Below, in pieces: positions 6,338 to 53,863 of a stretch of 64,000 bases of DNA. Below the pieces are notes generated by a model. It did no database searches. It saw nothing but the letters and a program-made list of their open reading frames with translations, and had not been told where the DNA came from. Position 1 is the first letter of the stretch, and each line of letters starts with the position of its first letter. The stretch lies in assembly GCA_043801745.1 (NCBI GenBank), contig JAZDLR010000013.1, forward strand, positions 9,608-73,607, read 5' to 3'. Position numbers and translations under genes: made by a program. Source of the stretch: Candidatus Komeilibacteria bacterium (GTDB taxonomy: Bacteria > Patescibacteriota > Patescibacteriia > UBA1558 > 2-01-FULL-52-15).

Positions 6338-6622
6338 ATGAATTTGTCGCTATTACAGAAATATATACTTAAAGTTTGCTATGGTCAGCTCTCTTTGCCC
6401 AAGGAGTATTTTTTAGCGTTTTATCAGGGTAATAATATTGACGCAGAAACGGCCTTAAAGGATATAGGCAAAAGTATCGATCGTCTGGTTTCGCGGGATT
6501 TATTGAAAGTTTCAGGTGTCAAAACAGCGAAAAAATGGTATACTTCCACTGTGAATTTGACGTATCAGGGAGAAAAAATGGCCAAGAAATTGTTGAGTGA
6601 GCAGCCGAAGTTGTTTAGATAA
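6338..6622 (+). CDS. hypothetical protein
   Basis: 94-aa ORF in host-like composition. Confidence 0.4.
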   Translation: MNLSLLQKYILKVCYGQLSLPKEYFLAFYQGNNIDAETALKDIGKSIDRLVSRDLLKVSGVKTAKKWYTSTVNLTYQGEKMAKKLLSEQPKLFR

Positions 6623-6645
6623 TTAAACCACCCCGCCTGTCGGCA

Positions 6646-6667
6646 CCCCTCCTTGCTAAGGAGGGGA
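6646..6667. repeat. GC-rich palindrome CCCCTCCTT-gcta-AAGGAGGGG (family A variant)
   Basis: 9-bp inverted repeat preceded by ACCACCCCGCC, the same words that open the ~400-nt elements. The 3' arm supplies AGGAGG 13 nt before the GTG at 6679. Confidence 0.45.
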
Positions 6668-13940: not shown

Positions 13941-13987
13941 AAGTTAGAAGTTTGGAGTAAGAAGTAGGGGCAGATTTTTTATTCGTA

Positions 13988-14015
13988 TTGACAGTAATTA
14001 CCAATCTGCTAAGTT
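13988..14015 (+). promoter_or_regulatory. sigma70-like promoter upstream of the riboswitch
   Basis: TTGACA, 16-nt spacer, TAAGTT. Confidence 0.35.
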
Positions 14016-14034
14016 AACCGTACAACTAAATTAA

Positions 14035-14178
14035 TTACGTATCCAGAGAGTAGAGATGCTAAGGGACCGGCCCGATGCTCTACCTGCAACCAATTAAGTT
14101 TGGTGCAAATTCCGTCCTCATGAGTGGGGCGAAGATGCTTAAATGTTTTGGATACGTCGCAATTACAGCGACTTTTTT
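14035..14178 (+). promoter_or_regulatory. SAM-I (S-box) riboswitch with terminator expression platform
   Basis: Matches SAM-I conserved words: GGGAC.GGCCCGATG (K-turn region), GCAACCA...GGTGCAAATTCC (P3/J3-4), ATGAG and GATGCTTAA pairing with the 5' TTACGTATC (P1). Followed by terminator GTCGC-aattaca-GCGAC-TTTTTT. Confidence 0.65.
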
Positions 14179-14214
14179 CATATATAAGCGCCAATTCGAC
14201 GTACTATAAACAGT

Positions 14215-14249
14215 ATCACGCTATCTTTGTGGGGAACGTGATTTTTTTG
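14215..14249 (+). terminator. second intrinsic terminator
   Basis: ATCACG...CGTGAT stem followed by TTTTTTT. Confidence 0.45.
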
Positions 14250-14310
14250 TTGCAGTTCTTTTACATCATCTCCAATGTGCTGACAGTGCTTCATCTGACT
14301 GGAGGAAAAT

Positions 14311-14487
14311 ATGAAACGAAAGGTGCTCAAACAGACCGGATTGTCCGTTGACGAAACGCGAAGGGCGCTTAAAAGTGAAGATCCTGTTAAGATCGGATCT
14401 GGGCTGAAAGACCCAGTTTCCATTTTGATGCTAATTAAGCAGGTGGCATCCAGAAGGAGGAGTAAGACAAAACAGCACACAAACTGA
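14311..14487 (+). CDS. 58-aa basic hypothetical protein downstream of the SAM riboswitch
   Basis: Strong SD GGAGGA 5 nt before the ATG. Product MKRKVLKQTGLSVDETRRALKSEDPVKIGSGLKDPVSILMLIKQVASRRRSKTKQHTN. Absent from the ORF track because it is under 60 aa. Confidence 0.4.
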   Translation: MKRKVLKQTGLSVDETRRALKSEDPVKIGSGLKDPVSILMLIKQVASRRRSKTKQHTN

Positions 14488-14530
14488 AGGCGAATTACAT
14501 TTACGTTTAGTATCCCGCCTTTAGTTATCG

Positions 14531-14567
14531 AGCGGCATGTCCATCATGGGTGTGCCGCTTTTCTATT
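14531..14567 (+). terminator. intrinsic terminator after the small ORF
   Basis: AGCGGCA...TGCCGCT stem followed by TTTCTATT. Confidence 0.4.
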
Positions 14568-14599
14568 AAAAAAAACAGCCGATGAGGTTGTTTTTTTAA

Positions 14600-14686
14600 T
14601 GGTGGGCCGGGTAGGGTTCGAACCTACGAAGGCGCAAGGCCAGCAGATTTACAGTCTGCCCCGTTTGACCACTTCGGTACCGACCC
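14600..14686 (-). tRNA. tRNA-Tyr(GTA)
   Basis: Cloverleaf with anticodon loop CTGTAAA, long variable arm, GGTTCGAACC T-arm and encoded CCA. Confidence 0.85.
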
Positions 14687-14802
14687 ATAAGCCAAAGGCT
14701 TATTATTTTTGATTGTAAAAGATTTTTGTCTCTTATTGTGGGCCCTTGGCCCATGGAGCCGAGAATCCCGCAAAACTATTTCGTCAACTCTTATTTTAAT
14801 TT

Positions 14803-14878
14803 TGGAGCCATCCGTCGGAATCGAACCGACGACCTACGGTTTACAAAACCGTTGCTCTACCAGCTGAGCTAGGATGGC
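14803..14878 (-). tRNA. tRNA-Thr(TGT)
   Basis: GCCATCC acceptor, anticodon loop TTTGTAA, T-arm GGTTCGATTCC, encoded CCA. Confidence 0.85.
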
Positions 14879-14918
14879 GGACTTTTAATTGGTGATTAAT
14901 GAACCTTCGTCAATGCGG

Positions 14919-15024
14919 GACGACCTACGGTTTATCCCGCCACCTTTATTAAATTTAAATGAAGGCGGGACCCCGCCAAAGGCGGTGGCAAAACCGTTGC
15001 TCTACCAGCTGAGCTATCTCGGCC
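14919..15024 (-). pseudogene. tRNA-Thr(TGT)-derived pseudo-tRNA with a 53-nt insertion in the anticodon loop and no T-arm
   Basis: 28 nt (TAGCTCAGCTGGTAGAGCAACGGTTTTG) and 16 nt (TAAACCGTAGGTCGTC) are identical to the adjacent tRNA-Thr. They are split by CCACCGCCTTTGGCGGGGTCCCGCC...GGTGGCGGGA. The 3' part lacks a T-stem and acceptor strand. Confidence 0.5.
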
Positions 15025-15031
15025 TATTCGC

Positions 15032-15105
15032 TGGCAGGGGTGGAGGGAATCGAACCCCCGACATCGGTTTTGGAGACCCATGTTATTCCACTTAACTACA
15101 CCCCC
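15032..15105 (-). tRNA. tRNA-Trp(CCA)
   Basis: GGTCTCCAAAACC anticodon arm as in the E. coli tRNA-Trp I recall. T-arm GGTTCGATTCC, CCCCTG-CCA end. Confidence 0.85.
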
Positions 15106-15125
15106 ACATATTTTTTTGCTACTGA

Positions 15126-15154
15126 TTTATATATACTTTTGGGTATTTTGTAAA
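15126..15154 (-). promoter_or_regulatory. candidate promoter of the tRNA cluster
   Basis: Minus strand reads TTTACA, 17-nt spacer, TATAAA, about 20 nt before tRNA-Trp. Confidence 0.35.
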
Positions 15155-15254
15155 GGGCTACATTATTATACCTTATTGGTAAGCGTTTCTGATAGTCCTG
15201 GCGGCCAGCTCGACGTAACGACTAAGTTCTGACAGCGCGCTGTTAGCTTTTAGT

Positions 15255-15312
15255 TAAAAAATCCCCCGCGTGAGAGCACCAGGCCAAAACCTGATACTGC
15301 TTCACGCGGGGG
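15255..15312 (-). terminator. intrinsic terminator of the island 3 gene
   Basis: 11-bp stem CCCCCGCGTGA/TCACGCGGGGG followed by ATTTTTT on the minus strand. Confidence 0.5.
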
Positions 15313-15326
15313 AAAGGCGCGGCCGA

Positions 15327-15890
15327 CTACTTTACCTCGGCCTGCTCTTCAGGGTTCGCATAGACCGCCCAGTGGCAGGTCAGGCGCCTGAACTCGGACC
15401 AGGCCATGTGCTTCTCCAGCATGCCATCGTCAGTGACGGCGAGGATGGGGAAGCGACGGGCACCGTCCTTCAGCCAGTAGTCGTCTGGGAAACCCACTCC
15501 TCTCCTGGCACTCTTGATTGAGCTCGGGGTCATGGGGTCGTCCCAGGATCCGTCGTGGGGCAAGATGTCCTTGAGGCTCTCGAGTGTCGGAAATCTAGCA
15601 TGGAACGGTCCCATCCACCAGCCCGAAGCCGGCTGTCCGTACGGGAGGAGCGCTTGCTTCATCGTATTCAGGTTAGGCCGGATAACGCCGTGCAATATCA
15701 CTAGCTTGAAATTTCCCACGACATTGAAGGGAGGTCCCGTACCCCCCGAGTAAACCCACCCCCGAGGATCATCTCCGCAGGCGCGGACCAACTCCATGGG
15801 GTCGAATGGGGTTGCGAGCGTGAGCTGAAACACCTTGCTCACGCTGACCTGGTCGGTCTGGTCTTCGATGGTCACAATAGGTTCAGTCAT
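15327..15890 (-). CDS. hypothetical protein (GC-rich island 3)
   Basis: 187-aa ORF at ~60% GC. SD GGAGGA 6 nt upstream in the context CACCAAACCACGGAGGATACTATG. No recognisable domain. Confidence 0.55.
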   Translation of the reverse strand: MTEPIVTIEDQTDQVSVSKVFQLTLATPFDPMELVRACGDDPRGWVYSGGTGPPFNVVGNFKLVILHGVIRPNLNTMKQALLPYGQPASGWWMGPFHARFPTLESLKDILPHDGSWDDPMTPSSIKSARRGVGFPDDYWLKDGARRFPILAVTDDGMLEKHMAWSEFRRLTCHWAVYANPEEQAEVK

Positions 15891-25651: not shown

Positions 25652-28324
25652 ATGTCTACAATTCATCTCAATTTGAAAACAGTAAAGATTGCCGTAACAG
25701 TCATAACGATCTTTGGTCTGTTTCAACCCTTTACCCTGGCCGGTTTTCTGTCCCCGATCAGAGCTCAGGAAGCGCCGCCAAGCGAAATAGTGGTTACCGA
25801 ATCCCAGGACAATCAAGTTTCGACAGTAACTATCGTTGCCCACAAAATAGTCTGTCAGCAGGAGGCCAGTTTGCCTAATTGGGGCAACGGCCGTCAGGCC
25901 GGTATCACGATTGATGCCGATACAGCCGCTAATTGGGTGGCCGCTCATCAGGATTGCGCTTTAGTTTCTGGTTGGAATTTTCAGTGGTCGTATGATGAAG
26001 AAATTAATCCCGGCGATCAGGTGGGTGATGCCGGTTCACCCTGGCAAACTTTTGGACCGACAAATAGTTCCGGACAGACGACAACTCAAGTACCTTTGGT
26101 AACTAATCCGGACGAAATTAAGGTACGGGAAGTTTTTCAGTCCGGTTACCTGCCATTTACCGGCAAGAACATAACTGAGAATGTCAGTGCGGAGTTTTAT
26201 TGTAATAATGACGTTCTACATTATGATAATTATGATTTTGTTAAAGTCGCCGTGCCCGGCAACACCTATCACTGTGTGGCCTGGAACGTGCCACAGCCGC
26301 CGGTAGCACAGTGCGGTAATAGTCAAATAGAGGGTAGCGAGACTTGTGATGAGGGCAGTTTGAACGGTCAGCCGTTGCACTGCAATTCTACCTGTTCCGG
26401 TAATACTCCTGCTGTTTGCGGTAATCAGATAACCGAAACTTCTCCTTATGGTTCGGAACAATGTGATGACGGCAATGTAGCTAACGGTGATGGCTGTAGC
26501 TCCAGCTGTCAGATTGAAATCCCGCCATCAAGTCCGGTTTGCGGTAATGGGGTTAAAGAAAGTGACGAAACCTGCGATGAGGGTAATTTGAATGGTCAAC
26601 CTTTACATTGTAATTCTAACTGTGGCGGTAACACACCGCCAGTTTGCGGTAATCAGATAACCGAGACCTCTCCTTATGGTTCGGAACAATGTGATGATGG
26701 TAATGTGGCTAACAGTGATGGTTGTAATTTCAGCTGTCAGATTGAGCCGCAAGCCTGTCATTCCCCCTTAGATTACGTCAATACTGCAGGAATTTTAGGT
26801 CCGGATCAGGCCTTGACTGCCAGTGATGCCGTAATCTTTACTGCCAGATATGAAGCGGCTTTAGGCAGTCATAGCGGCGATGCTAAATTTAATTCTACTG
26901 TTGACGTGAAAACTGACGGGGTGATTAACGCGGCTGATTATTTATGCGCCCGGCCGTATTATGCCGCTGCCGGTCCTTATACCTGTCAGTTGGATTGTAA
27001 TAATCTCTGTGTTAATCCTTTGGATTATAATAAGGATTATTTTATTACTGCTTCTGACGGTGTTGATTTTACCGCCTACTATATGAATAAAACTGTGGCT
27101 ACTTCAACGGGTGGCTACCTGGCGGATCTTAATGGTAATGGCGGGGTTGATTATGGTGATTATGTTTGCGCTAATAGTGAATTATCCACTTCTACTTATC
27201 AGTGTCCGCTGCAGTGTGCGGCGGTTTGCGGTGATACCAAGATTGATAAGCGGTTAGGTGAAACTTGTGACGACGGTAACATCACCGATCATGACGGCTG
27301 TAGTTCGCTCTGTCGCCTAGAAACTAATCAGTGCGAAGCGCCCAATAAATTAGATTATAATGGCGATTACCAGTTGTCGATGAATGATGCGGTTATTTTC
27401 ACCAGTTATTATCAAGCCGATAATCTCTTAGCTAATGTCAATAATAACGCCGTGGTTGATTATGGCGATAAGCTCTGTGCTGATAAATATTATGGTGGAT
27501 CTTTAGCTTATACTTGTACCATAGCTTGTTCGGAATATACACCGGTCTGTGGTGATACTCATAAGGACGCCGGAGAACAGTGTGATGACGGCAATATCAA
27601 AAATGGCGACGGTTGTAGTTCTAGTTGTCAGATTGAAATCCCGCCATCAAGTCCGGTTTGCGGTAATGGCCAGTTAGAAACAGGGGAACACTGTGATGAT
27701 GGTAACCAACAAAATGGCGACGGTTGCAATACCAATTGCGAGGTAGAACCGGCTCCTGTTCCTCAGCCAGTGAGTCACGGTGGAGGCGGTGGCGGTGGCA
27801 GAGGAATGGTTTCGGTCGTGCGTCTAGTCATTGACAAGAAAGTTACTCCGACCGCGGTTGAACCCGGCGGACAGGCCACTTACACTGTTACACTAACCAA
27901 TAGTGGCAATACCATTGCTACTTATGTTAGCCTGACCGATTCCATGCCGTCCGGTATAACCTTTGTAGATGGTGGTGTCAGTAGCAAAACCTGGAATTGG
28001 GATACTTTAGGCGCCGGTCAGTCGGTTGCGATCAGTTATACTGTTAAGGCTGATGTTAAGGCAGTTACTGGTGTTTATTTGAATCAGGCTCAAGCTTCAG
28101 CCGCTAATGCCCAGTCAGTTTCCACTACCGCTCCTTTAGAGCTGCGTCAGCCAACAGTAGCCGGGGTGGAGACAGTTAAGCCGGTAGAGGAGAAGGTTAA
28201 AGTTTTGGGTTATGAGAAGTTACCGGATACTTCCGGCGATTGGTCGACATTACTGCTAATCTTAGGTATAATGTCGGCGGCTTCCACTGGGCTATTGGCG
28301 TTACGGTTGAATCGCAATAGATAA
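25652..28324 (+). CDS. giant LPxTG surface protein with Cys-rich repeats and dockerin-like Ca-binding repeats
   Basis: Signal peptide. Tandem repeats CGN..E.CDDGN...GDGCS..CQIE resembling the Myxococcus cysteine-rich repeat. DxNxDGxVDYGDY dockerin-like motifs. DUF11-like domain. C-terminal LPDTSGD, TM, RLNRNR tail. Internal nucleotide repeats (e.g. a 40-nt exact repeat near 26515 and 27635). Confidence 0.7.
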   Translation: MSTIHLNLKTVKIAVTVITIFGLFQPFTLAGFLSPIRAQEAPPSEIVVTESQDNQVSTVTIVAHKIVCQQEASLPNWGNGRQAGITIDADTAANWVAAHQDCALVSGWNFQWSYDEEINPGDQVGDAGSPWQTFGPTNSSGQTTTQVPLVTNPDEIKVREVFQSGYLPFTGKNITENVSAEFYCNNDVLHYDNYDFVKVAVPGNTYHCVAWNVPQPPVAQCGNSQIEGSETCDEGSLNGQPLHCNSTCSGNTPAVCGNQITETSPYGSEQCDDGNVANGDGCSSSCQIEIPPSSPVCGNGVKESDETCDEGNLNGQPLHCNSNCGGNTPPVCGNQITETSPYGSEQCDDGNVANSDGCNFSCQIEPQACHSPLDYVNTAGILGPDQALTASDAVIFTARYEAALGSHSGDAKFNSTVDVKTDGVINAADYLCARPYYAAAGPYTCQLDCNNLCVNPLDYNKDYFITASDGVDFTAYYMNKTVATSTGGYLADLNGNGGVDYGDYVCANSELSTSTYQCPLQCAAVCGDTKIDKRLGETCDDGNITDHDGCSSLCRLETNQCEAPNKLDYNGDYQLSMNDAVIFTSYYQADNLLANVNNNAVVDYGDKLCADKYYGGSLAYTCTIACSEYTPVCGDTHKDAGEQCDDGNIKNGDGCSSSCQIEIPPSSPVCGNGQLETGEHCDDGNQQNGDGCNTNCEVEPAPVPQPVSHGGGGGGGRGMVSVVRLVIDKKVTPTAVEPGGQATYTVTLTNSGNTIATYVSLTDSMPSGITFVDGGVSSKTWNWDTLGAGQSVAISYTVKADVKAVTGVYLNQAQASAANAQSVSTTAPLELRQPTVAGVETVKPVEEKVKVLGYEKLPDTSGDWSTLLLILGIMSAASTGLLALRLNRNR

Positions 28325-28356
28325 TCATTAGCGTTCCTTAGATTTATTAATTAATT

Positions 28357-30111
28357 ATGGTAAAAATGAAGAAAACAAGAAAACATACTTCATATACTCC
28401 CTTCCTGTTAGGGAAGCGGGTATCCGTGGTCGTGTTAACTGGTGTTCTCTTCATCAATTTGTCGCTAGTAGCACAAGTTTTGGCCAAAGGCCCGAGTGCT
28501 GCCCTGGAGGGGGTGAACGGTGATGAACAGACATCAGTAAATAACGAGCCACAAATCGATCCAGTAGTCAGTACTCCGGTGGAGACTACGCCGGTCGAGG
28601 CAATTGTGCCAACAACTGATCCTGCACCCGAAGTCATGGTGCCAGCTGTTAGACCGGTAGAACAGCCCGGTGCTTATTCAGCACCGCAATGCACCAGCGT
28701 GGCACCGGTGGCAACTATCGTTGCTGATAAGATCGTTTGTCAGCATGAGTCTAGTTTGCCGAACTGGGGAGCAGATCCCGGCGTCACAATTAATGCTAAT
28801 ACTGCTGCTAATTTTGTGCGGGACAGCAAGGGTGATTGTAGTTTGGTCCCAGGTTGGAAATTTCAGTGGTCGTTTAATGAGCTTAATCCCGGAGATCAAA
28901 TCGGAGAAGCGAGTTCGCCTTGGACAACCTTTGGGCCAACTAATGGTTCTGGTCGTGCGACGACCCCGGTGCTATTAGCGGGTAATAGCGAGATTAAGTT
29001 ACGTGAGGTTTTTCAATCAGGTTATATACCGTTTACTGGTATAGGAACTACGGCCAATGTCAGCGCGGAATTTTATTGTTATAATGATGTTTTAAATTAT
29101 GACAATTACGATTTTGTCCGCAATGCTGAGGCCGGACATACCTATTACTGTGTAGCTTGGAACGTGGCTATTCCGCAGTGTTTGTCCACTTTGGACTACA
29201 ATGATGGTCAAGGCGGTGGACCCGAGGGTTTCTTAACCCTTGGTGATGCCGTGAAATTCACCTCGCTTTATGAAGGTGCTTTAGGACATCACAAGGGTCA
29301 GGCAAAATATGATGCTACTGTTGATGTTAATGGTGATGGTAAAGTTAGCATAGCTGACTATTACTGTGCGCAACCATATTATGCTGGTGCTTACGCTGAT
29401 GTTAATGGCATCACTGCTGCGCCCCAGTGTCCCATTGACTGTTCTCGGGCCTGTGTTAATCCTTTAGACCTTAATAAGGATTACGATTTATCCCATAGCG
29501 AGGAAGATCAGTTTAACCATTATTATAATGAGGGTAATATTAAGGCCGATCTGAACGGTAATCAACGGGTTGATTATGGCGATAAGTTATGCGCCGGGGT
29601 TCAGTTTGACCATGATACTCAATATCAATGTCCGGTTAAGTGCGCCGCAGTTTGCGGTGATGGCATTGTGCAAAAAAGATTAGGCGAACAATGTGATAAT
29701 GGTACTGGACATAATACTGCAGACTGTACAGCGGGATGCAAATTGCGTCCTACGGCTCCAGCTGTAATGAGTAGCGAAGTTATTTCCGGCAGTACCAGTT
29801 CTGATGTGACGGCTCCCAGCGTGGACACCCCGTCAGAGCCGAAAGTTACGGTTGAATTACCGGTGATCAATTTTATTGGTCCCTTAGTTCAATCTGAAGC
29901 TCCGGATATTACGCCGGTTAAACCAGTTATTAAGCCAATAAAGAATGTAACTCTGAATCCGGAAACTGTATTGATTACACCCCCGGTTTTAGTGGCGGCT
30001 AATAATCTGCCGGTTAATGATCAGCTGTCAGTAGTTAATACTGCAGTAGCTAAACCAGCTAAGACCTCATCTTGGTGGGTTAAGCCGATTGCTTTCTTGT
30101 TTAGCTGGTAA
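28357..30111 (+). CDS. paralogous large secreted protein
   Basis: N-terminal domain paralogous to that of 25652..28324 (IVADKIVCQHESSLPNWG ... VFQSGYIPFTG). Dockerin-like repeats. No clear LPxTG signal. Confidence 0.65.
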   Translation: MVKMKKTRKHTSYTPFLLGKRVSVVVLTGVLFINLSLVAQVLAKGPSAALEGVNGDEQTSVNNEPQIDPVVSTPVETTPVEAIVPTTDPAPEVMVPAVRPVEQPGAYSAPQCTSVAPVATIVADKIVCQHESSLPNWGADPGVTINANTAANFVRDSKGDCSLVPGWKFQWSFNELNPGDQIGEASSPWTTFGPTNGSGRATTPVLLAGNSEIKLREVFQSGYIPFTGIGTTANVSAEFYCYNDVLNYDNYDFVRNAEAGHTYYCVAWNVAIPQCLSTLDYNDGQGGGPEGFLTLGDAVKFTSLYEGALGHHKGQAKYDATVDVNGDGKVSIADYYCAQPYYAGAYADVNGITAAPQCPIDCSRACVNPLDLNKDYDLSHSEEDQFNHYYNEGNIKADLNGNQRVDYGDKLCAGVQFDHDTQYQCPVKCAAVCGDGIVQKRLGEQCDNGTGHNTADCTAGCKLRPTAPAVMSSEVISGSTSSDVTAPSVDTPSEPKVTVELPVINFIGPLVQSEAPDITPVKPVIKPIKNVTLNPETVLITPPVLVAANNLPVNDQLSVVNTAVAKPAKTSSWWVKPIAFLFSW

Positions 30112-30190: not shown

Positions 30191-31294
30191 ATGCACAATA
30201 ACCGGCGATTATCTACCTGGAACATTCTGAAACGGGAGCTGCAATCAGCCCAGCAGGTTTGGTGCGATTATTTCATTCCGCACGCCGGGAATAATCACAG
30301 ACCTCATATTTGGCACCGGCAGCACGTCAATCTTATTGCCGCTATTTTATTAGCGTCCAAAGTTGCTTTGGTCATTATTTTATTCTCTTTTGTTCCTAAT
30401 GGTGCTGAATTGTCACCCCAGGTAGAGCAATCAATGGTCGATCTGTCTAACCAATACCGTCTACAACTCAAAGAATCAACTTTAAGTCGTAACAGCTACC
30501 TGGATTCAGTGGCCTTACTGCGCGCTAATGACATGATTGCCAGAAATTATTTTAGTCACTACACGCCCGATGGCCGTAAACCCTGGGAATGGGTAGACAC
30601 CAAACAGTATAATTACAGCCGCTTTGGTGAAAATTTAGCTATGGATTTTATTACAGCCGAGGCGGTTTTCAAAGCTTTTCTGGCAAGTCCGACGCACGAG
30701 AAGAATTTACACAATGCCAATTACCGCGATATCGGTGTGGCTACGGTTAGTGGTGTCTTGGATGGAAAAGAAACTAATTTGATGGTAGTTCTCTTTGGTG
30801 CGCAGCAACCCAAGTCCGCTCCAGTCTTAGCAGACAATAAGCCAGCTCAGCCAGTGACTCAACCGATAACAGTTCCTGTTGTTAAGCCAACACCGATACC
30901 CACACCAAAACCAGTGCCCGTAACGGTCAATGAACCAGACCGCATTGCTGCGCCTCAAGATTTGGTCACAGCCAATCCTATTATTGTCCAGCCGACAGAA
31001 GTTAAGGGTGTGTCAGCTGAAACGCAGCCGATTCCCGTGACGCCTACGGTTATCAAGAATGCTACTTGGCTGCAACAGTTAGTATCTTACTCCCACGATA
31101 TTTATTTCCTTTTGCTGATCGCCTTTTTAGTCATAGCTTTGCTCAATATTTTGGTGGCTATACGCGTTCAACACCGGTCAACTATTTTGGCCAGCTTTCT
31201 TTTGATCGCTCTAGCCGGTTATCTCTGGCTGGTTAATTGGAACGGAATTGAAGGTTGGACTAGCGGAATCAAAGTTTTAGGTTTATTTTTCTAA
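30191..31294 (+). CDS. CAP/SCP/PR1-like domain membrane protein
   Basis: CAP-domain signature region (NYFSHYTPDGRKPWEW ... FLASPTHEKNLHNANYRDIGVA) between N- and C-terminal TM segments. Confidence 0.55.
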   Translation: MHNNRRLSTWNILKRELQSAQQVWCDYFIPHAGNNHRPHIWHRQHVNLIAAILLASKVALVIILFSFVPNGAELSPQVEQSMVDLSNQYRLQLKESTLSRNSYLDSVALLRANDMIARNYFSHYTPDGRKPWEWVDTKQYNYSRFGENLAMDFITAEAVFKAFLASPTHEKNLHNANYRDIGVATVSGVLDGKETNLMVVLFGAQQPKSAPVLADNKPAQPVTQPITVPVVKPTPIPTPKPVPVTVNEPDRIAAPQDLVTANPIIVQPTEVKGVSAETQPIPVTPTVIKNATWLQQLVSYSHDIYFLLLIAFLVIALLNILVAIRVQHRSTILASFLLIALAGYLWLVNWNGIEGWTSGIKVLGLFF

Positions 31295-31352
31295 GTTTTT
31301 TTGTCAGATAAATCATTAAACGCGTCTTTGGTGCGTTTTTTTGTTATTAACC

Positions 31353-31735
31353 AGATAAACCACCCCGCCTTGGCGGGGTGTGTGCGTTTTAAGGCTTTGC
31401 CCTCGGTATACGAACAGGAGAGAAAGAAACAAATAAACTTTTCTACTCCTAGGATCAATAATCAGCCAACTTGTCCTACCTTCGGTTATAGCTATTCATT
31501 GCGGTGTTCCCCTCGCCGGGGAGGCATTACTTTTGTGACCAAAAGTAATCAAAAGTCTTGGGGTCGCCTAGACTCGCCCTCGGTCTATTAATCTTTAGTT
31601 TTTCTTTTCTTGGGCTCAAACAAGTAGGCGACCCCAAACCCCAAGAGTGATTTGGATAGCCGCATTATTCTATTTTCTGAAGCTGCCGTAGGCAGCGAGA
31701 ACAGAAACCCCCAGAGTTAGTGCTGGGGTATGTTC
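31353..31735 (+). ncRNA. copy 1 of a ~400-nt structured intergenic element (candidate novel ncRNA)
   Basis: Opens with hairpin CACCCCGCC-tt-GGCGGGGTG. Contains H3 ATTACTTTTG/CAAAAGTAAT, long-range helix GGGGTCGCC/GGCGACCCC, H4 GCTGCCgtaGGCAGC, and H5 CCCCAG...CTGGGG, plus conserved AGAACAGAAACC. Pairs with copy 2 through compensatory changes. Confidence 0.4.
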
Positions 31736-31774
31736 ATCTCGGTCCGGTTCAATAATTAGTGATATACTATAAGT

Positions 31775-33043
31775 ATGACAATTACCTCTCTGTCCATCGA
31801 TTCCTATAAAAGCATTATCCGGCCGTTGCGTTTAACCTTGTCGCCTCAGATTAATATTTTTATTGGTCAGAATAATAGTGGTAAAACTAATATTATTGAT
31901 GCTATTGATTTTGTTTTTAATCCCGACAAGTTTCCGAGCCGGCTGCACCATCATCGGGCACGCATTGCTATTCAGTTGGAAGATCGTCGGGAATTACTGA
32001 CGGCCCGCGGTTATGAAGTCAGCGGTTTAACGGCTGACTTGCGGGGTAAGGTCAAGCGCTTATCAGCGGATGAGCCATGGGATTTTGGTTCTATTAGCCA
32101 AGATTATCAGCGTCTTTTTAAGCTCTATCCGCAGCAGTACCAGGTTTTAAATGAGATATTCTCTAGCTATTTTCCTCATGTCGCCGGTGATGACCGGGTA
32201 ATTGATCTTGATTGGCAAGCTGGTCATGCTTTTATTCATGAGGATGATAAACCTCTGGTTTTAGAGCGGCTGGGTAGCGGTTTTCAGAAAATTTTTATTA
32301 TTTTGCTATACGCTTTTCATCCCGATTATCCAATTATACTTTTGGATGAACCAGAAACCCATCTTCATCCGGCGTTAATCAAGAAACTGGCCAAGGTTTT
32401 AGCCAGTAAGTCGACAAATCAAGTTATTTTAACCACGCATTCCCCTTTATTTATCCAAACACCATGGTTGTCAACCATCAATCGCGTGGTGCGGTCTTGG
32501 GATGAGGGTACGGTGGTTTATCATTTAGACCATACTCATCGGGGTTTGGATCCGGCACGGTTAGCCCAGGAATTGAACGCAGATAATTTGGAAATGTTTT
32601 TTGCTGACAAAGTCCTGATGGTGGAGGGTGCTTCTGATCGTTTGCTGCTGCGTGGTTTGATTGACCGTTTTTACCATGGTCCGTTGGAAGTTAAGGTGAT
32701 TGAGGCTCATGGTAAGGGCAATATGGAACTCTACCGCGATTTATTGGAGGCTTTCCATATCCCGAGTATTATTATGTTGGATTTAGACGCTTTGTCGGTT
32801 TGGCAAGCAGCAGATCGGCACTGGCGTCAAGATCCGGCCCGTTTGAAGCTGGCCTTGCAGGAATTGCGGCAGCGCGGTATATACATTCTACCCAATGGCA
32901 CAATTGAGCATAATTATCCCCGGCGTTATCAAAAAAGTGACCGTAAAACCTTGAATGCTCTGCGGGCCGCGGCGCAAATCAGTTTGTCCGAATATCAATC
33001 AGGCGAAATGGCTAATTTGCGGCAGGTAATCGAAGCCTTATAA
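31775..33043 (+). CDS. OLD-family ATP-dependent nuclease (ABC-type ATPase + TOPRIM)
   Basis: Walker A GQNNSGKTN, ABC signature LGSGFQ, Walker B ILLLDEPETHLHP, H-loop TTHSP. C-terminal TOPRIM-like motifs (MVEGASD, IIMLDLD). Confidence 0.6.
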   Translation: MTITSLSIDSYKSIIRPLRLTLSPQINIFIGQNNSGKTNIIDAIDFVFNPDKFPSRLHHHRARIAIQLEDRRELLTARGYEVSGLTADLRGKVKRLSADEPWDFGSISQDYQRLFKLYPQQYQVLNEIFSSYFPHVAGDDRVIDLDWQAGHAFIHEDDKPLVLERLGSGFQKIFIILLYAFHPDYPIILLDEPETHLHPALIKKLAKVLASKSTNQVILTTHSPLFIQTPWLSTINRVVRSWDEGTVVYHLDHTHRGLDPARLAQELNADNLEMFFADKVLMVEGASDRLLLRGLIDRFYHGPLEVKVIEAHGKGNMELYRDLLEAFHIPSIIMLDLDALSVWQAADRHWRQDPARLKLALQELRQRGIYILPNGTIEHNYPRRYQKSDRKTLNALRAAAQISLSEYQSGEMANLRQVIEAL

Positions 33044-52413: not shown

Positions 52414-52449
52414 CCCCCGTGTGCTTTTACAGGCACGGGGGAGTTTTTT
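52414..52449 (+). terminator. intrinsic terminator of the island 4 gene
   Basis: CCCCCGTG-tgcttttacagg-CACGGGGG followed by AGTTTTTT. Confidence 0.6.
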
Positions 52450-52452
52450 AAA

Positions 52453-52885
52453 CAGATAAGCCACCCCGCCTTGGCGGGGTGTGTTCGTTTTAAAGCGTAG
52501 CTCTTGAAGTACACATAGAAGGCGAAGAAACGGAAGGACAAGCTCTGCTCTTAGCAACTCAAATCATCCGATCTTTCTAGTTGTCCGCATACTAAGGATT
52601 GGCTTTGTTATACCCCTCGCCCCCTCGGCTTCGCTCGGGGCAGGCTTGAGGCCCTACTTTTGTAACCAAAAGTAGGGAAAAGTTTCGGGGGCGCGTAAGT
52701 CGCGTGGGTCTTTTCAGCTTAATCTTGCTTGTCGTGGCTATCAGTACGCGACCCCAAACCCCCTAAAAGATAAAATTAGCAGGTGTTGATTAAACAGTAG
52801 CGTTCTTACCTTTATCATATCAACTTAGGCCGCTACCGTAGGCAGCTAGAACAGAAACCTTCAGCGTTTAAGCTGAAGGTATGTT
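52453..52885 (+). ncRNA. copy 2 of the ~400-nt structured intergenic element
   Basis: Same 5' 45 nt (CAGATAAgCCACCCCGCCTTGGCGGGGTGTGTtCGTTTTAA). H3 is CCTACTTTTG/CAAAAGTAGG, the long-range helix is GGGGGCGCG/CGCGACCCC, and H5 is CCTTCAGC/GCTGAAGG. All are compensatory relative to copy 1. Confidence 0.4.
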
Positions 52886-53863
52886 TATCTCTGCTAGAAT
52901 TTTTCTAACCTCTTCTGGCGAGTTAACCCGCACCAGACGTTGGCGCAATTGGGAAGCGTTAGTTTGCCCTTTAATATAATGCGCTAAGTGATGCCGTATG
53001 GGCTGGAAATACTTCGGTCCATAAAGCTCATAAAACCAGTCAGCGTGCTGCTGCATGGTTTGCTTTATTTCCTCCCAACTGACTGGTTTATAGCTGCCGG
53101 TAGTCAAATAGTCTTTAACCTGCCGGAAGACCCAGGGCTGGCCTATGACACTGCGCGCCAATCCTAAACCGTCAGCTTTAGTAGCTGCTAATACTTCTCT
53201 GGCACTCTCAATAGTTGTTACACCGCCGTTAGCCAATATTGGTCCGGAAAAAAAAGTTTTGGCCTGCTTAATAATAGCTGTATCAATCGGCCCAGTGAAT
53301 GATCCTTCGAAACTGCGGCCATGAATCATTACAGCCGCCAAAGGCAAGTCTTGGTTGGCGTTAATAAAATCCAGAACAGAAACTTTATCCCGTGGCCGGC
53401 CGGCCGGTAAATCGGCAGTTTGATAAATTGCCGTCCGAACCTTAACCGAGACAGGAACCGTTACAGCCGACAGGGCGGCTTCAATTATTTGGCGCGACAA
53501 AACTAAATCCCGCATTAGCATCACGCCACAGAAATTGCGGGCAATCTTATTAGCCGGACAACCAAAATTTAGATCCAAGCCTGCAGCTCCGCTAGCCTCA
53601 ACAATCTTGGCCGCTTCAGCTATGACTTTAGGATTATTACCCATAATTTGTATGACCACTGGTTGTTCGGCGGCCACAAATTCCATCATCTTGAAGGCTT
53701 TGGGAACGTGGCGCACTAGAGCTTCAGCTGCAATCATTTCCGAATACACTACATCAGCGCCCCAGTGCTTGGCTAAACGGCGGTAAGCTGAATCAGTGAT
53801 CCCGACCATCGGAGCCAGAGCCAGGATAGGGCGGGGTAAAGTATTCCAGAAGTCAGATGACAT
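52868..53863 (-). CDS. dus: tRNA-dihydrouridine synthase
   Basis: LAPMVGITDSAYR motif and the Dus TIM-barrel pattern. Its stop codon lies inside hairpin H5 of element copy 2. Confidence 0.8.
   Translation of the reverse strand: MSSDFWNTLPRPILALAPMVGITDSAYRRLAKHWGADVVYSEMIAAEALVRHVPKAFKMMEFVAAEQPVVIQIMGNNPKVIAEAAKIVEASGAAGLDLNFGCPANKIARNFCGVMLMRDLVLSRQIIEAALSAVTVPVSVKVRTAIYQTADLPAGRPRDKVSVLDFINANQDLPLAAVMIHGRSFEGSFTGPIDTAIIKQAKTFFSGPILANGGVTTIESAREVLAATKADGLGLARSVIGQPWVFRQVKDYLTTGSYKPVSWEEIKQTMQQHADWFYELYGPKYFQPIRHHLAHYIKGQTNASQLRQRLVRVNSPEEVRKILAEINIPSA

Follow-up and report, generated by a model that had tools for sequence, protein, structure and literature searches.

The tRNA gene cluster described here is read on the minus strand of a 64,000-nt stretch of DNA from a metagenome-assembled genome of Candidatus Komeilibacteria (the window, to whose full length all coordinates refer unless a related locus, designated by L and a number, is named). 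Between the genes for tRNA-Trp and tRNA-Tyr, an intact gene for tRNA-Thr(UGU) is nested inside an older, dead tRNA-Thr gene at 15023-14754 (Table 1), as can be seen from the two acceptor strands of the outer gene ("type A"), which flank the intact gene ("type B"). On the minus strand, the 5′ part of the outer gene reads GCCGAGA TA GCTC AGCTGGTA GAGC A ACGGT TTTG, and is followed by an insert of 54 nt, which we call element E, and then by TAA ACCGT AGGTC GTC. Positions 8-35 of the dead gene are a 28-nt exact repeat of the intact tRNA-Thr(UGU), and the 16 nt past the insert (positions 36-51) are likewise identical, but the acceptor 5′ strands, GCCGAGA in the dead gene versus GCCATCC in the intact one, differ at every one of positions 4-7 (GAGA versus ATCC).

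Table 1. Coordinates of the tRNA genes, and of the parts of the nested tRNA-Thr structure, in the window
Feature	Coordinates	Strand	Details	Source
tRNA-Thr(GGU)	16475-16400	minus		ARAGORN, Rfam
tRNA-Trp, upstream neighbour	15105-15032	minus	8 nt (15031-15024) up to the dead gene	ARAGORN, Rfam
Dead resident tRNA-Thr(UGU) (type A), positions 1-35	15023-14989	minus	acceptor 5′ strand GCCGAGA, D arm, 5′ strand of anticodon stem, loop TTTG	
Element E, between G35 and U36	14988-14935	minus	54 nt; two hairpins, HP1 and HP2	
Dead gene, positions 36-51	14934-14919	minus	TAA ACCGT AGGTC GTC; same as intact copy; ends before T loop	
Long-range stem, 5′ arm	14921-14915	minus	GTCCCGC; arm sequence as in HP2 of E; partner GCGGGAT at 14771-14765	fold
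Spacer X	14914-14879	minus	holds -35-like TTGACGAA at 14913-14906	
Intact tRNA-Thr(UGU) (type B)	14878-14803	minus	acceptor GCCATCC/GGATGGC	ARAGORN; Rfam, 71.6 bits
Spacer Y	14802-14765	minus	start like HP2 loop; second TTGACGAA at 14787-14780; end GCGGGAT (14771-14765) is the 3′ arm of the long-range stem	
Displaced 3′ end of dead gene	14764-14754	minus	TCTCGGC, discriminator T and CCA; TCTCGGC is the exact complement of GCCGAGA	
Trailer hairpin	14753-14739	minus	TGGGCC-AAG-GGCCCA, T...A type, directly past the displaced CCA	sequence; trailer survey
tRNA-Tyr, downstream neighbour	14686-14600	minus	no dead copy and no nuclease gene here	

A gap of 38 nt separates the intact tRNA from the 3′ end of the outer gene, which lies downstream. 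The sequence of this end, the 11-mer TCTCGGC-T-CCA, occurs once in the window and is the same as the 3′ end of the intact type-A tRNA in the related loci L003 and L008; the trailer that follows its CCA resembles the T...A hairpins found by a trailer survey behind intact tRNAs in relatives. The minimum-free-energy fold of 15031-14750 pairs both type-A acceptor strands around the inner tRNA (z = -3.0), with the D arm and the anticodon stem formed and with a 7-bp stem, GTCCCGC/GCGGGAT, enclosing the inner tRNA. The dead copy has no T arm, and no T loop is found anywhere between its two halves. Foreign DNA within it amounts to ~224 nt (14988-14765), made up of E, the repeat of positions 36-51, spacer X, type B and spacer Y, and contains no open reading frame (ORF). 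Its left junction is exact at G35/U36 of the anticodon loop, while at the right junction positions 52-64 were deleted, so that what is left of the outer gene is a tRNA remnant with an incomplete cloverleaf, consisting of positions 1-51, the 3′ acceptor strand and the CCA.

The initial annotation of this locus had seen in it a non-functional duplicate of tRNA-Thr between tRNA-Trp and tRNA-Thr(UGU), lacking a T arm and split by 53 nt. The lack of function and of a T arm is borne out, as no cloverleaf or intron model fits, and a tRNA-Thr copy it is, but it represents an older resident gene with the intact gene inside; the insert measures 54 nt (14988-14935). The identity that was claimed for the first 36 nt and for a 16-nt segment holds for positions 8-35 and 36-51 and fails at acceptor positions 4-7, and the acceptor 3′ strand, thought to have been replaced together with the T stem by unrelated sequence, is present at 14764-14754. 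The dead copy was not called as a tRNA either by ARAGORN with intron and pseudogene options, which gave just one spurious low-threshold call on the opposite strand, or by Rfam at a permissive E-value (14500-15200), leaving the suggested alternative of an intron-containing tRNA-like RNA unsupported. More generally, Rfam searches returned only tRNAs or sub-threshold noise, both at the gathering threshold (the window and 14 related loci) and by E-value (14500-15200 and 31250-31850). A promoter scan of 14550-15350 yielded no promoter: TTGACGAA is -35-like but forms no consensus promoter. The two copies of this 8-nt direct repeat, which flank the inner tRNA, were also considered as a target-site duplication, an idea we rejected, as such a repeat is not seen in other modules of this kind and may be a -35 box.

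Alleles of the locus in related genomes

Orthologous clusters were fetched through their conserved upstream gene order (ScpA, ScpB, RluB, peptidase, TIM, aldolase and TPR protein). The comparison of the same locus in related genomes, which the initial annotation had envisaged, revealed empty (L006), filled (L007, L011) and intact type-A (L003, L004, L008, L013) alleles. In L006, whose TPR protein is 80% identical to that of the window, the order is Thr(GGU)-rpmG-Trp-Thr(UGU)-Tyr, and the only tRNA-Thr(UGU) is of type B (76/76 versus the inner gene of the window), with no outer gene, insert or spacers. In the four type-A loci (TPR protein 62-63%), the sole tRNA-Thr(UGU) is an intact type A, GCCGAGA...TCTCGGC-T-CCA, while L002 (62%) has the inner type only. 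In L007 (81%), a type-A 5′ part is split at the same nucleotide by a homologous insert and is followed by an intact type B; L011 (69%) has the same arrangement plus a second interrupted copy with a type-B acceptor. Since the acceptor stem of the dead gene is that of the sole intact tRNA-Thr(UGU) of L003 and L008, type A is not a simple duplicate: it is the former resident tRNA-Thr(UGU), since replaced by type B.

The dead 5′ part of the window is identical to psi-1 of L011 at 35/35 positions and to the L007 copy at 33/35. Four-fold-degenerate sites of the TPR gene were compared between the window, L007, L006 and L003. Between the window and L007 they are 40% identical, i.e. saturated, and yet the dead 5′ parts match at 33/35 positions and the stems of E are identical, while its AT-rich loop has diverged. 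L006 and L007 have 96% identical TPR proteins (62% at four-fold sites), and the module is absent from the former and present in the latter. The locus thus displays both the presence/absence polymorphism and the intact empty target that would characterise a homing-endonuclease cassette, with L006 empty, L007 filled, and L003 and L008 retaining an intact type A. The dead gene of L007 adjoins a fragment of a TPR gene that is 87% identical to the TPR gene of L003 and just 70% to that of L007 itself, which suggests, from the sequence comparison, that the dead type-A piece may have come with flanking DNA of an L003-like genome. The alternative would be an assembly chimera, although the tRNA sequence in common seems not long enough to produce one.

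A second nested case is found at L057 (6303-6557), from the distant Kerfeldbacteria, in which an outer gene, GCCACCT...AGGTGGCTCCA, is split after TTTG by hairpins and a whole tRNA-Thr(UGU), and retains its 3′ half. L091 has the mirror layout, with the intact gene first and 3′ halves, each preceded by E, downstream. Tandem psi-E arrays are present in L104, L011, L123 and L091.

Sequence, site and distribution of element E

In the window, HP1 of element E is CCGCC-TTT-GGCGG (14985-14973) and HP2 is TCCCGCC-22 nt-GGCGGGA (14970-14935), and its middle arms, GGCGG-GGTC-CCGCC, together with TTCATTTAAA, score as terminator-like. Relatives of E were sought by scanning metagenomes for the pattern, by scanning species-representative genomes and by looking for hairpins in the related loci; the metagenome scan gave 78 matches, mostly by chance in coding DNA, with ~10 true family members. 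Across the family, HP1 takes the form CCACCGCC-loop-GGCGGGG or CCACCC-loop-GGGTGG, and HP2 starts with T and ends with A, its variants being TGCCGCC/GGCGGCA, TCCCGCC/GGCGGGA, TGGCCC/GGGCCA and TGACCC/GGGTCA. When twelve Es with hand-trimmed loops were aligned, 144/144 stem cells were paired, with compensatory changes at three pairs and free variation in the loops.

Homologous E occupies the same site as in the window in dead tRNA-Thr copies of L007, L011, L025, L091, L104, L109, L123, L146 and L057. At ~25 other Patescibacteria loci, E is found at the anticodon-loop point G/(U)AAA (a slash marks the junction) of dead tRNA-Thr, tRNA-Tyr and tRNA-Ser(GGA): the junctions read UUUG/E/UAAAC in Thr(UGU), ACUG/E/UAAAU in Tyr(GUA) and CUGG/E/AAA in Ser(GGA), and a dead tRNA-Ser(GCU) of Ignavibacteriaceae has one hairpin of a related type at UUG/CUAAA. 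Past E there follow 4-21 nt of the tRNA 3′ part, a spacer, and then an intact tRNA of the same isoacceptor; a working tRNA adjoins nearly every dead copy. Related hairpins also occupy the D loop of dead copies in L011, L025, L049, L168 and L171, and L056 has a hairpin element in the T loop in reverse orientation, which favours an event at the DNA level over an RNA intron.

In a pattern scan of 527 kb of related loci, all two-hairpin units of the CCACC type lay in tRNA-derived sequence, mostly at G/(U)AAA. The lone exception to this context is a look-alike in the window itself, at 6620-6666 on the minus strand (CCCCTCC-TTAGCAA-GGAGGGG, TGCCGACAGGCGGGGTGG, TTTAATTATCTAAAC), which is intergenic, directly follows the stop codon of an ORF, and is not tRNA-derived. 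The full 25-nt motif of E is unique in the window, and its reported recurrence at 6627-6667 therefore reduces to this looser two-hairpin resemblance. In the same way, the earlier view that a palindrome family had moved into a tRNA copy stands insofar as a hairpin element was placed in the anticodon loop, but the element is specific to tRNA loops and forms part of a larger replacement module.

Several further hairpins deserve mention. A trailer hairpin after tRNA-Tyr in L002 (2040-2095, minus strand), L007 (4000-4042, minus strand), L038 and L123 has a conserved loop, roughly nnAGCUUUAnnGCnn, on a TG...CA stem that comes close to HP2 of E, and the same motif is inserted in the dead T arm of the outer tRNA of L057 (6490-6535). 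At L056 (1908-2010), a dead tRNA-Thr with a 5′ part as in the L057 orthologue is interrupted after the same TTTTG/ by another hairpin, a long one (CCCCAGAAGT...ACTTCGGGG), which means that hairpin content turns over at a fixed site. At L049 (7140-7200), 25 nt past an intact tRNA-Trp, a tRNA-Trp-like fragment has a 9-bp hairpin in its anticodon loop, GGGTCT/CCACCCAGCCC-TTCGCGAA-GGGCTGGGT/CCAAAACC, indicating that a further tRNA species is affected.

GIY-YIG modules and a candidate tRNA-replacing cassette

The full module, as seen for Tyr and Ser, has the order dead tRNA 5′ part, E, a few tRNA bases, GIY-YIG gene, intact tRNA. Its ORF, of 79-87 codons, starts 54-62 nt after the start of E, and ends anywhere from ~30 nt before the intact tRNA to a slight overlap with it. 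It matches Pfam PF01541 (GIY-YIG) with E-values of about 1e-16, and the GIY, YIG, Arg and Glu motifs are visible; the nearest solved structures are the UPF0213 proteins 1zg2 and 1ywl, whose function is unassigned. L164 and L167 are 100% identical over the ORF, the tRNA-Tyr and 1.1 kb downstream, while their dead 5′ halves upstream of E are wholly different; judged by sequence, this is what a cassette entering the tRNA-Tyr gene of another genome would leave behind.

A second, more distant GIY-YIG subfamily (83-90 aa) is located between tRNA-Tyr and tRNA-Thr(GGU) in many of the same clusters (L011, 6241-6626; L028, 5308-5664; L057, 5882-6233; also L014, L023, L037, L040 and L045). It sits behind a conserved structured stretch of ~100 nt, ...CTCGCTCATGGT...GTCGAATGCCCTGAGCGAACGAAGTGAGTCGAAAGGCAT, which matches no Rfam family at the gathering threshold, and mostly ends within ~10 nt of tRNA-Thr(GGU). 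At L169 (1-290), a tyrosine integrase gene is closely followed by a tRNA fragment and two dead tRNA-Tyr copies with E, and this is the only integrase-adjacent module found.

The layout, shared by many ultra-small bacteria and often accompanied by a small GIY-YIG gene, suggests an undescribed selfish element that invades tRNA genes. We consider it somewhat probable that the locus in the window is the scar of a family of tRNA-replacing nuclease cassettes common in Patescibacteria, of which the nuclease gene is absent here. A tRNA gene without a cassette would be broken by the nuclease at G/(T)AAA, in the DNA of its anticodon loop, and the break would be repaired by recombination from a cassette-bearing copy, with the dead 5′ part and the new tRNA acting as homology arms; the cell would survive because the cassette supplies a working tRNA. 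In the window, the nuclease gene may have been lost, or its product may formerly have been supplied in trans. Such a cassette would account for the maintained 5′ part, for the tandem psi-E arrays (through self-cutting and repair), and for the position of the old 3′ end downstream whenever the incoming tRNA has a different acceptor stem. Most likely the locus does nothing now and the inner type-B gene does the decoding; the window copy is an inert, nuclease-less scar of modest importance by itself, and its interest lies in the family behind it.

The role of the nuclease can be put forward only tentatively. Perhaps the UPF0213 mini GIY-YIG nucleases are the engine of an unrecognised class of selfish elements, which would break tRNA anticodon loops by DNA structure or at G/(T)AAA and carry a replacement tRNA; E might then be a cis-acting end (e.g. 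nuclease-binding or site-blocking), and the window might hold a non-autonomous member, possibly mobilised in trans. UPF0213 has been grouped with the structure-specific Slx1 nucleases (PMC1564403), which hints that hairpin or cruciform DNA could be recognised by the UPF0213 nuclease. The ORFs of the related modules match the UPF0213 proteins 1zg2 and 1ywl by sequence, whereas the window encodes no member of this family. To our knowledge, no link between UPF0213 and tRNA genes has been reported.

A number of observations weigh against the cassette. The replacement tRNA retains the presumed cut site G/TAAA, leaving the immunity of filled alleles unexplained. No GIY-YIG gene was detected in the 64-kb window by tblastn or by hidden Markov model (HMM) searches, and thus the adjacent nuclease of a homing cassette is missing here; moreover, none of the Thr(UGU) modules found carries a GIY-YIG ORF, and they are linked to the nuclease only through the shared E and the neighbouring Tyr modules. 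The module protein is a bare catalytic domain of 80 aa with no DNA-binding domain. The contig of L167 ends at the point of comparison with L164, and the pair could reflect an assembly chimera. The hairpins differ in the orthologous dead copies of L056 and L057; E resembles the trailers of the type "CCA plus two hairpins" found after intact tRNAs in relatives, and may have another origin; and its stems are conserved in modules without an ORF too, which could mean a host function. It should also be kept in mind that the choice of loci favours this one tRNA cluster and sequences fitting the search pattern used.

Given the likeness of E to tRNA trailers and the conservation of its stems where no ORF adjoins, a role for the host, e.g. 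as a terminator or processing signal, stays a real rival. Under this explanation, which we regard as unlikely, the dead 5′ part and E would be a cis-acting element built from the old tRNA gene and kept by the host, namely a structured RNA or DNA signal between tRNA-Trp and tRNA-Thr that could act as terminator or insulator, direct processing or bind a protein. It would agree with the conservation of the E stems and the 35-nt 5′ part between genomes with saturated neutral sites, with the compensatory changes that preserve both hairpins, with the confinement of the hairpins to former tRNA loops (D, anticodon and T, never stems), with the terminator-like middle arms and TTCATTTAAA, and with the occurrence of E-like hairpin pairs after intact tRNAs and some protein genes. 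However, the sister genome L006 manages without the element, the acceptor/D-stem part of the 5′ region is degenerate or gone in L109, L146, L126 and L033, and the short form of E that most genomes possess has no U tract; no Rfam family corresponds to it, and in each genome positions 8-35 agree with those of the intact copy nearby, as would be expected from gene conversion. An ordinary local history, in which a tRNA-Thr gene was duplicated in tandem and decayed, and generic GC-rich hairpin repeats similar to repetitive extragenic palindromic (REP) sequences or miniature inverted-repeat transposable elements (MITEs) landed in it by chance with no link to a nuclease, is in our judgement quite unlikely. 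In its favour, bacteria commonly have tandem tRNA copies and GC-rich hairpins, and the window contains similar hairpins at other places and no nuclease gene; but differing acceptor stems and an intact copy inside the other one do not make a tandem duplication, and chance landing is contradicted by the recurrence of one insert at one nucleotide position in many genomes and in three tRNA species, by the absence of E from other intergenic DNA in 527 kb (one look-alike excepted), and by the uniqueness of the 25-nt core in the window.

Of the two disruptions, one is in the anticodon loop and the other in the T arm, and the anticodon loop and the T loop or arm of tRNA genes were reportedly described by Williams in 2002 as classic crossover regions of integrases. 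E and spacer Y might accordingly be the leftover att arms of deleted integrative elements, i.e. scars of a tyrosine integrase, and the displaced 3′ halves of L091, which lie downstream of the intact gene, each after E, as well as the integrase gene upstream of the L169 module, would fit. We nevertheless find this explanation very improbable: unlike an integrative element, only 224 nt without an ORF separate the ends of the old gene, the displaced piece is mostly the upstream 5′ part, the reverse of the usual integrase signature, no integrase adjoins the other modules, and the gene that is consistently associated is the GIY-YIG nuclease. That the locus encodes an unusual tRNA, split or with an intron, from which a functional tRNA-Thr is processed is hardly credible, even though the insert lies in the anticodon loop and the fold unites the D arm and anticodon stem with both acceptor strands. 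Between the halves a T loop is lacking, ARAGORN in intron mode gave nothing, and the host is a bacterium, all of which also speaks against an archaeal or eukaryal bulge-helix-bulge intron or a split tRNA. Group I introns are about 200 nt or longer, with a P1-P9 core, a 5′ exon ending in U and an intron ending in G; E, at 54 nt, is too short, follows G35 and ends in A, and no Rfam intron family was matched in 14500-15200 at the permissive E-value. In addition, most homologous dead copies have no 3′ half at all, and the element in the T loop of L056 is reversed. Two other candidates were rejected. An RNA-guided nuclease, with the dead 5′ half as guide and E as scaffold, would find a perfect target in the intact copy, and the protein has only 80 residues. 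For a phage origin, a DNA search of phage records found only generic tRNA similarity, and a scan of viral contigs gave two chance matches.

Returning to the putative tRNA-replacing cassette, the closest experimentally studied analogue is SegB, a free-standing GIY-YIG homing endonuclease from the tRNA gene cluster of phages T4/T6, which cuts inside tRNA genes, favours the inheritance of the tRNA region next to it and causes units of tRNA plus nuclease to be amplified in tandem by recombination (PMC2330249; PMC13096335). Its preferred motif, RAWTSGAAC, resembles, by our own reading, the T-loop sequence of tRNA genes. In both cases a GIY-YIG gene resides among tRNA genes, and the tandem psi-E arrays resemble SegB-driven segmental amplification (PMC13096335). 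In contrast to a site-specific phage endonuclease, however, the present modules encode a bare UPF0213 domain of 80 aa in cellular genomes, their breakpoint is in the anticodon loop, the unit includes a dead partial tRNA and a conserved hairpin pair, and no nuclease gene is left in the window.

A second likeness concerns the mitochondria of Allomyces, where Paquin, Laforest and Lang are said to have described in 1994 a GIY-YIG ORF in atp6 that brings a replacement gene piece, the displaced piece becoming a pseudogene; similar partial duplications are reported in fungal mitogenomes. There too the target is broken, a functional substitute is supplied, and the old fragment is kept alongside, but the genes are protein-coding organelle genes with replacement of the 3′ end, while here a tRNA gene is affected, a whole tRNA or its 5′ part is replaced, and a hairpin pair occupies the breakpoint. 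Integrative elements that target tRNA genes share with the modules the landing site, the junction in the anticodon or T loop and the duplicate tRNA segment that preserves function; they differ in that the modules have no integrase, an insert of just 224 nt here and ~0.3 kb in full modules, and a displaced fragment that is usually the 5′ part. Like the palindromic or MITE-like derivatives of IS200/IS605 elements and REP sequences, E is short and non-coding, with GC-rich hairpins near both ends, and like IS200/IS605 insertions it lies, on the opposite strand, just 3′ of TTTA. Such mini-elements form many dispersed copies, whereas E is not dispersed (one copy and one loose look-alike in the window) and is confined to tRNA-derived loops, and the geometry of its hairpins relative to the ends differs. 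No TnpA, TnpB or RAYT gene was found among the related loci, and no whole-genome transposase search was made. Full-text literature searches returned no description of such tRNA modules, which does not prove their absence from the literature.

If the cassette reading is true, it would explain the stray tRNA fragments and tandem tRNA copies in the streamlined genomes of Patescibacteria, and would provide a concrete and testable role for UPF0213, a broadly distributed protein family. The locus also shows how a foreign variant with a different acceptor stem can take the place of an essential tRNA gene present in a single copy, as in the change from type A to type B, which bears on the evolution of tRNA identity and on horizontal transfer among organisms considered to exchange little DNA. 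For annotation, dead copies and 80-aa ORFs abutting tRNA genes are easily missed or mis-called.

Other features of the window

Two non-coding repeats of ~430 nt, ~75% identical to each other and with conserved stems, are located on the plus strand at 31345-31775 and 52446-52900, and each opens with a perfect 9-bp hairpin, CACCCCGCC-TT-GGCGGGGTG, just past the end of a plus-strand ORF. The first repeat has no Rfam match, and neither has a match in the related loci. The initial annotation had equated their opening motif with the hairpin of the insert; the first hairpin of E does resemble CCACCCCGCC-TT-GGCGGGGTG at 31360 and 52461, but the full 25-nt motif is not shared. Kinship between E and these repeats was rejected, since BLAST against the related loci found none of them outside the window and only the one GC-rich opening hairpin is held in common. 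The sequence GGCGGGAT, considered as a dispersed repeat, occurs 11 times versus 1.9 expected, but was likewise dismissed, as its copies are mostly inside ORFs without common flanks.

On the minus strand, a GC-rich (55%) ORF of 187 codons at 15890-15327, with its own terminator hairpin at about 15310-15263, is inserted between rpmG (16310-16155) and tRNA-Trp, where L006 has a short spacer; it matches nothing in Pfam, PHROG or PADLOC. The ~660 nt that separate the TPR gene from tRNA-Tyr (13941-14599) are without a convincing long ORF, although a short plus-strand ORF near 14300-14480, with a Shine-Dalgarno-like AGGAGG, can be discerned by eye. Finally, large ORFs at 26300-29750 contain repeated Cys-rich coding units (e.g. 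EQCDDGN...DGC), corresponding to the direct-repeat families D3-D6, which look like ordinary repeat proteins of the clade.

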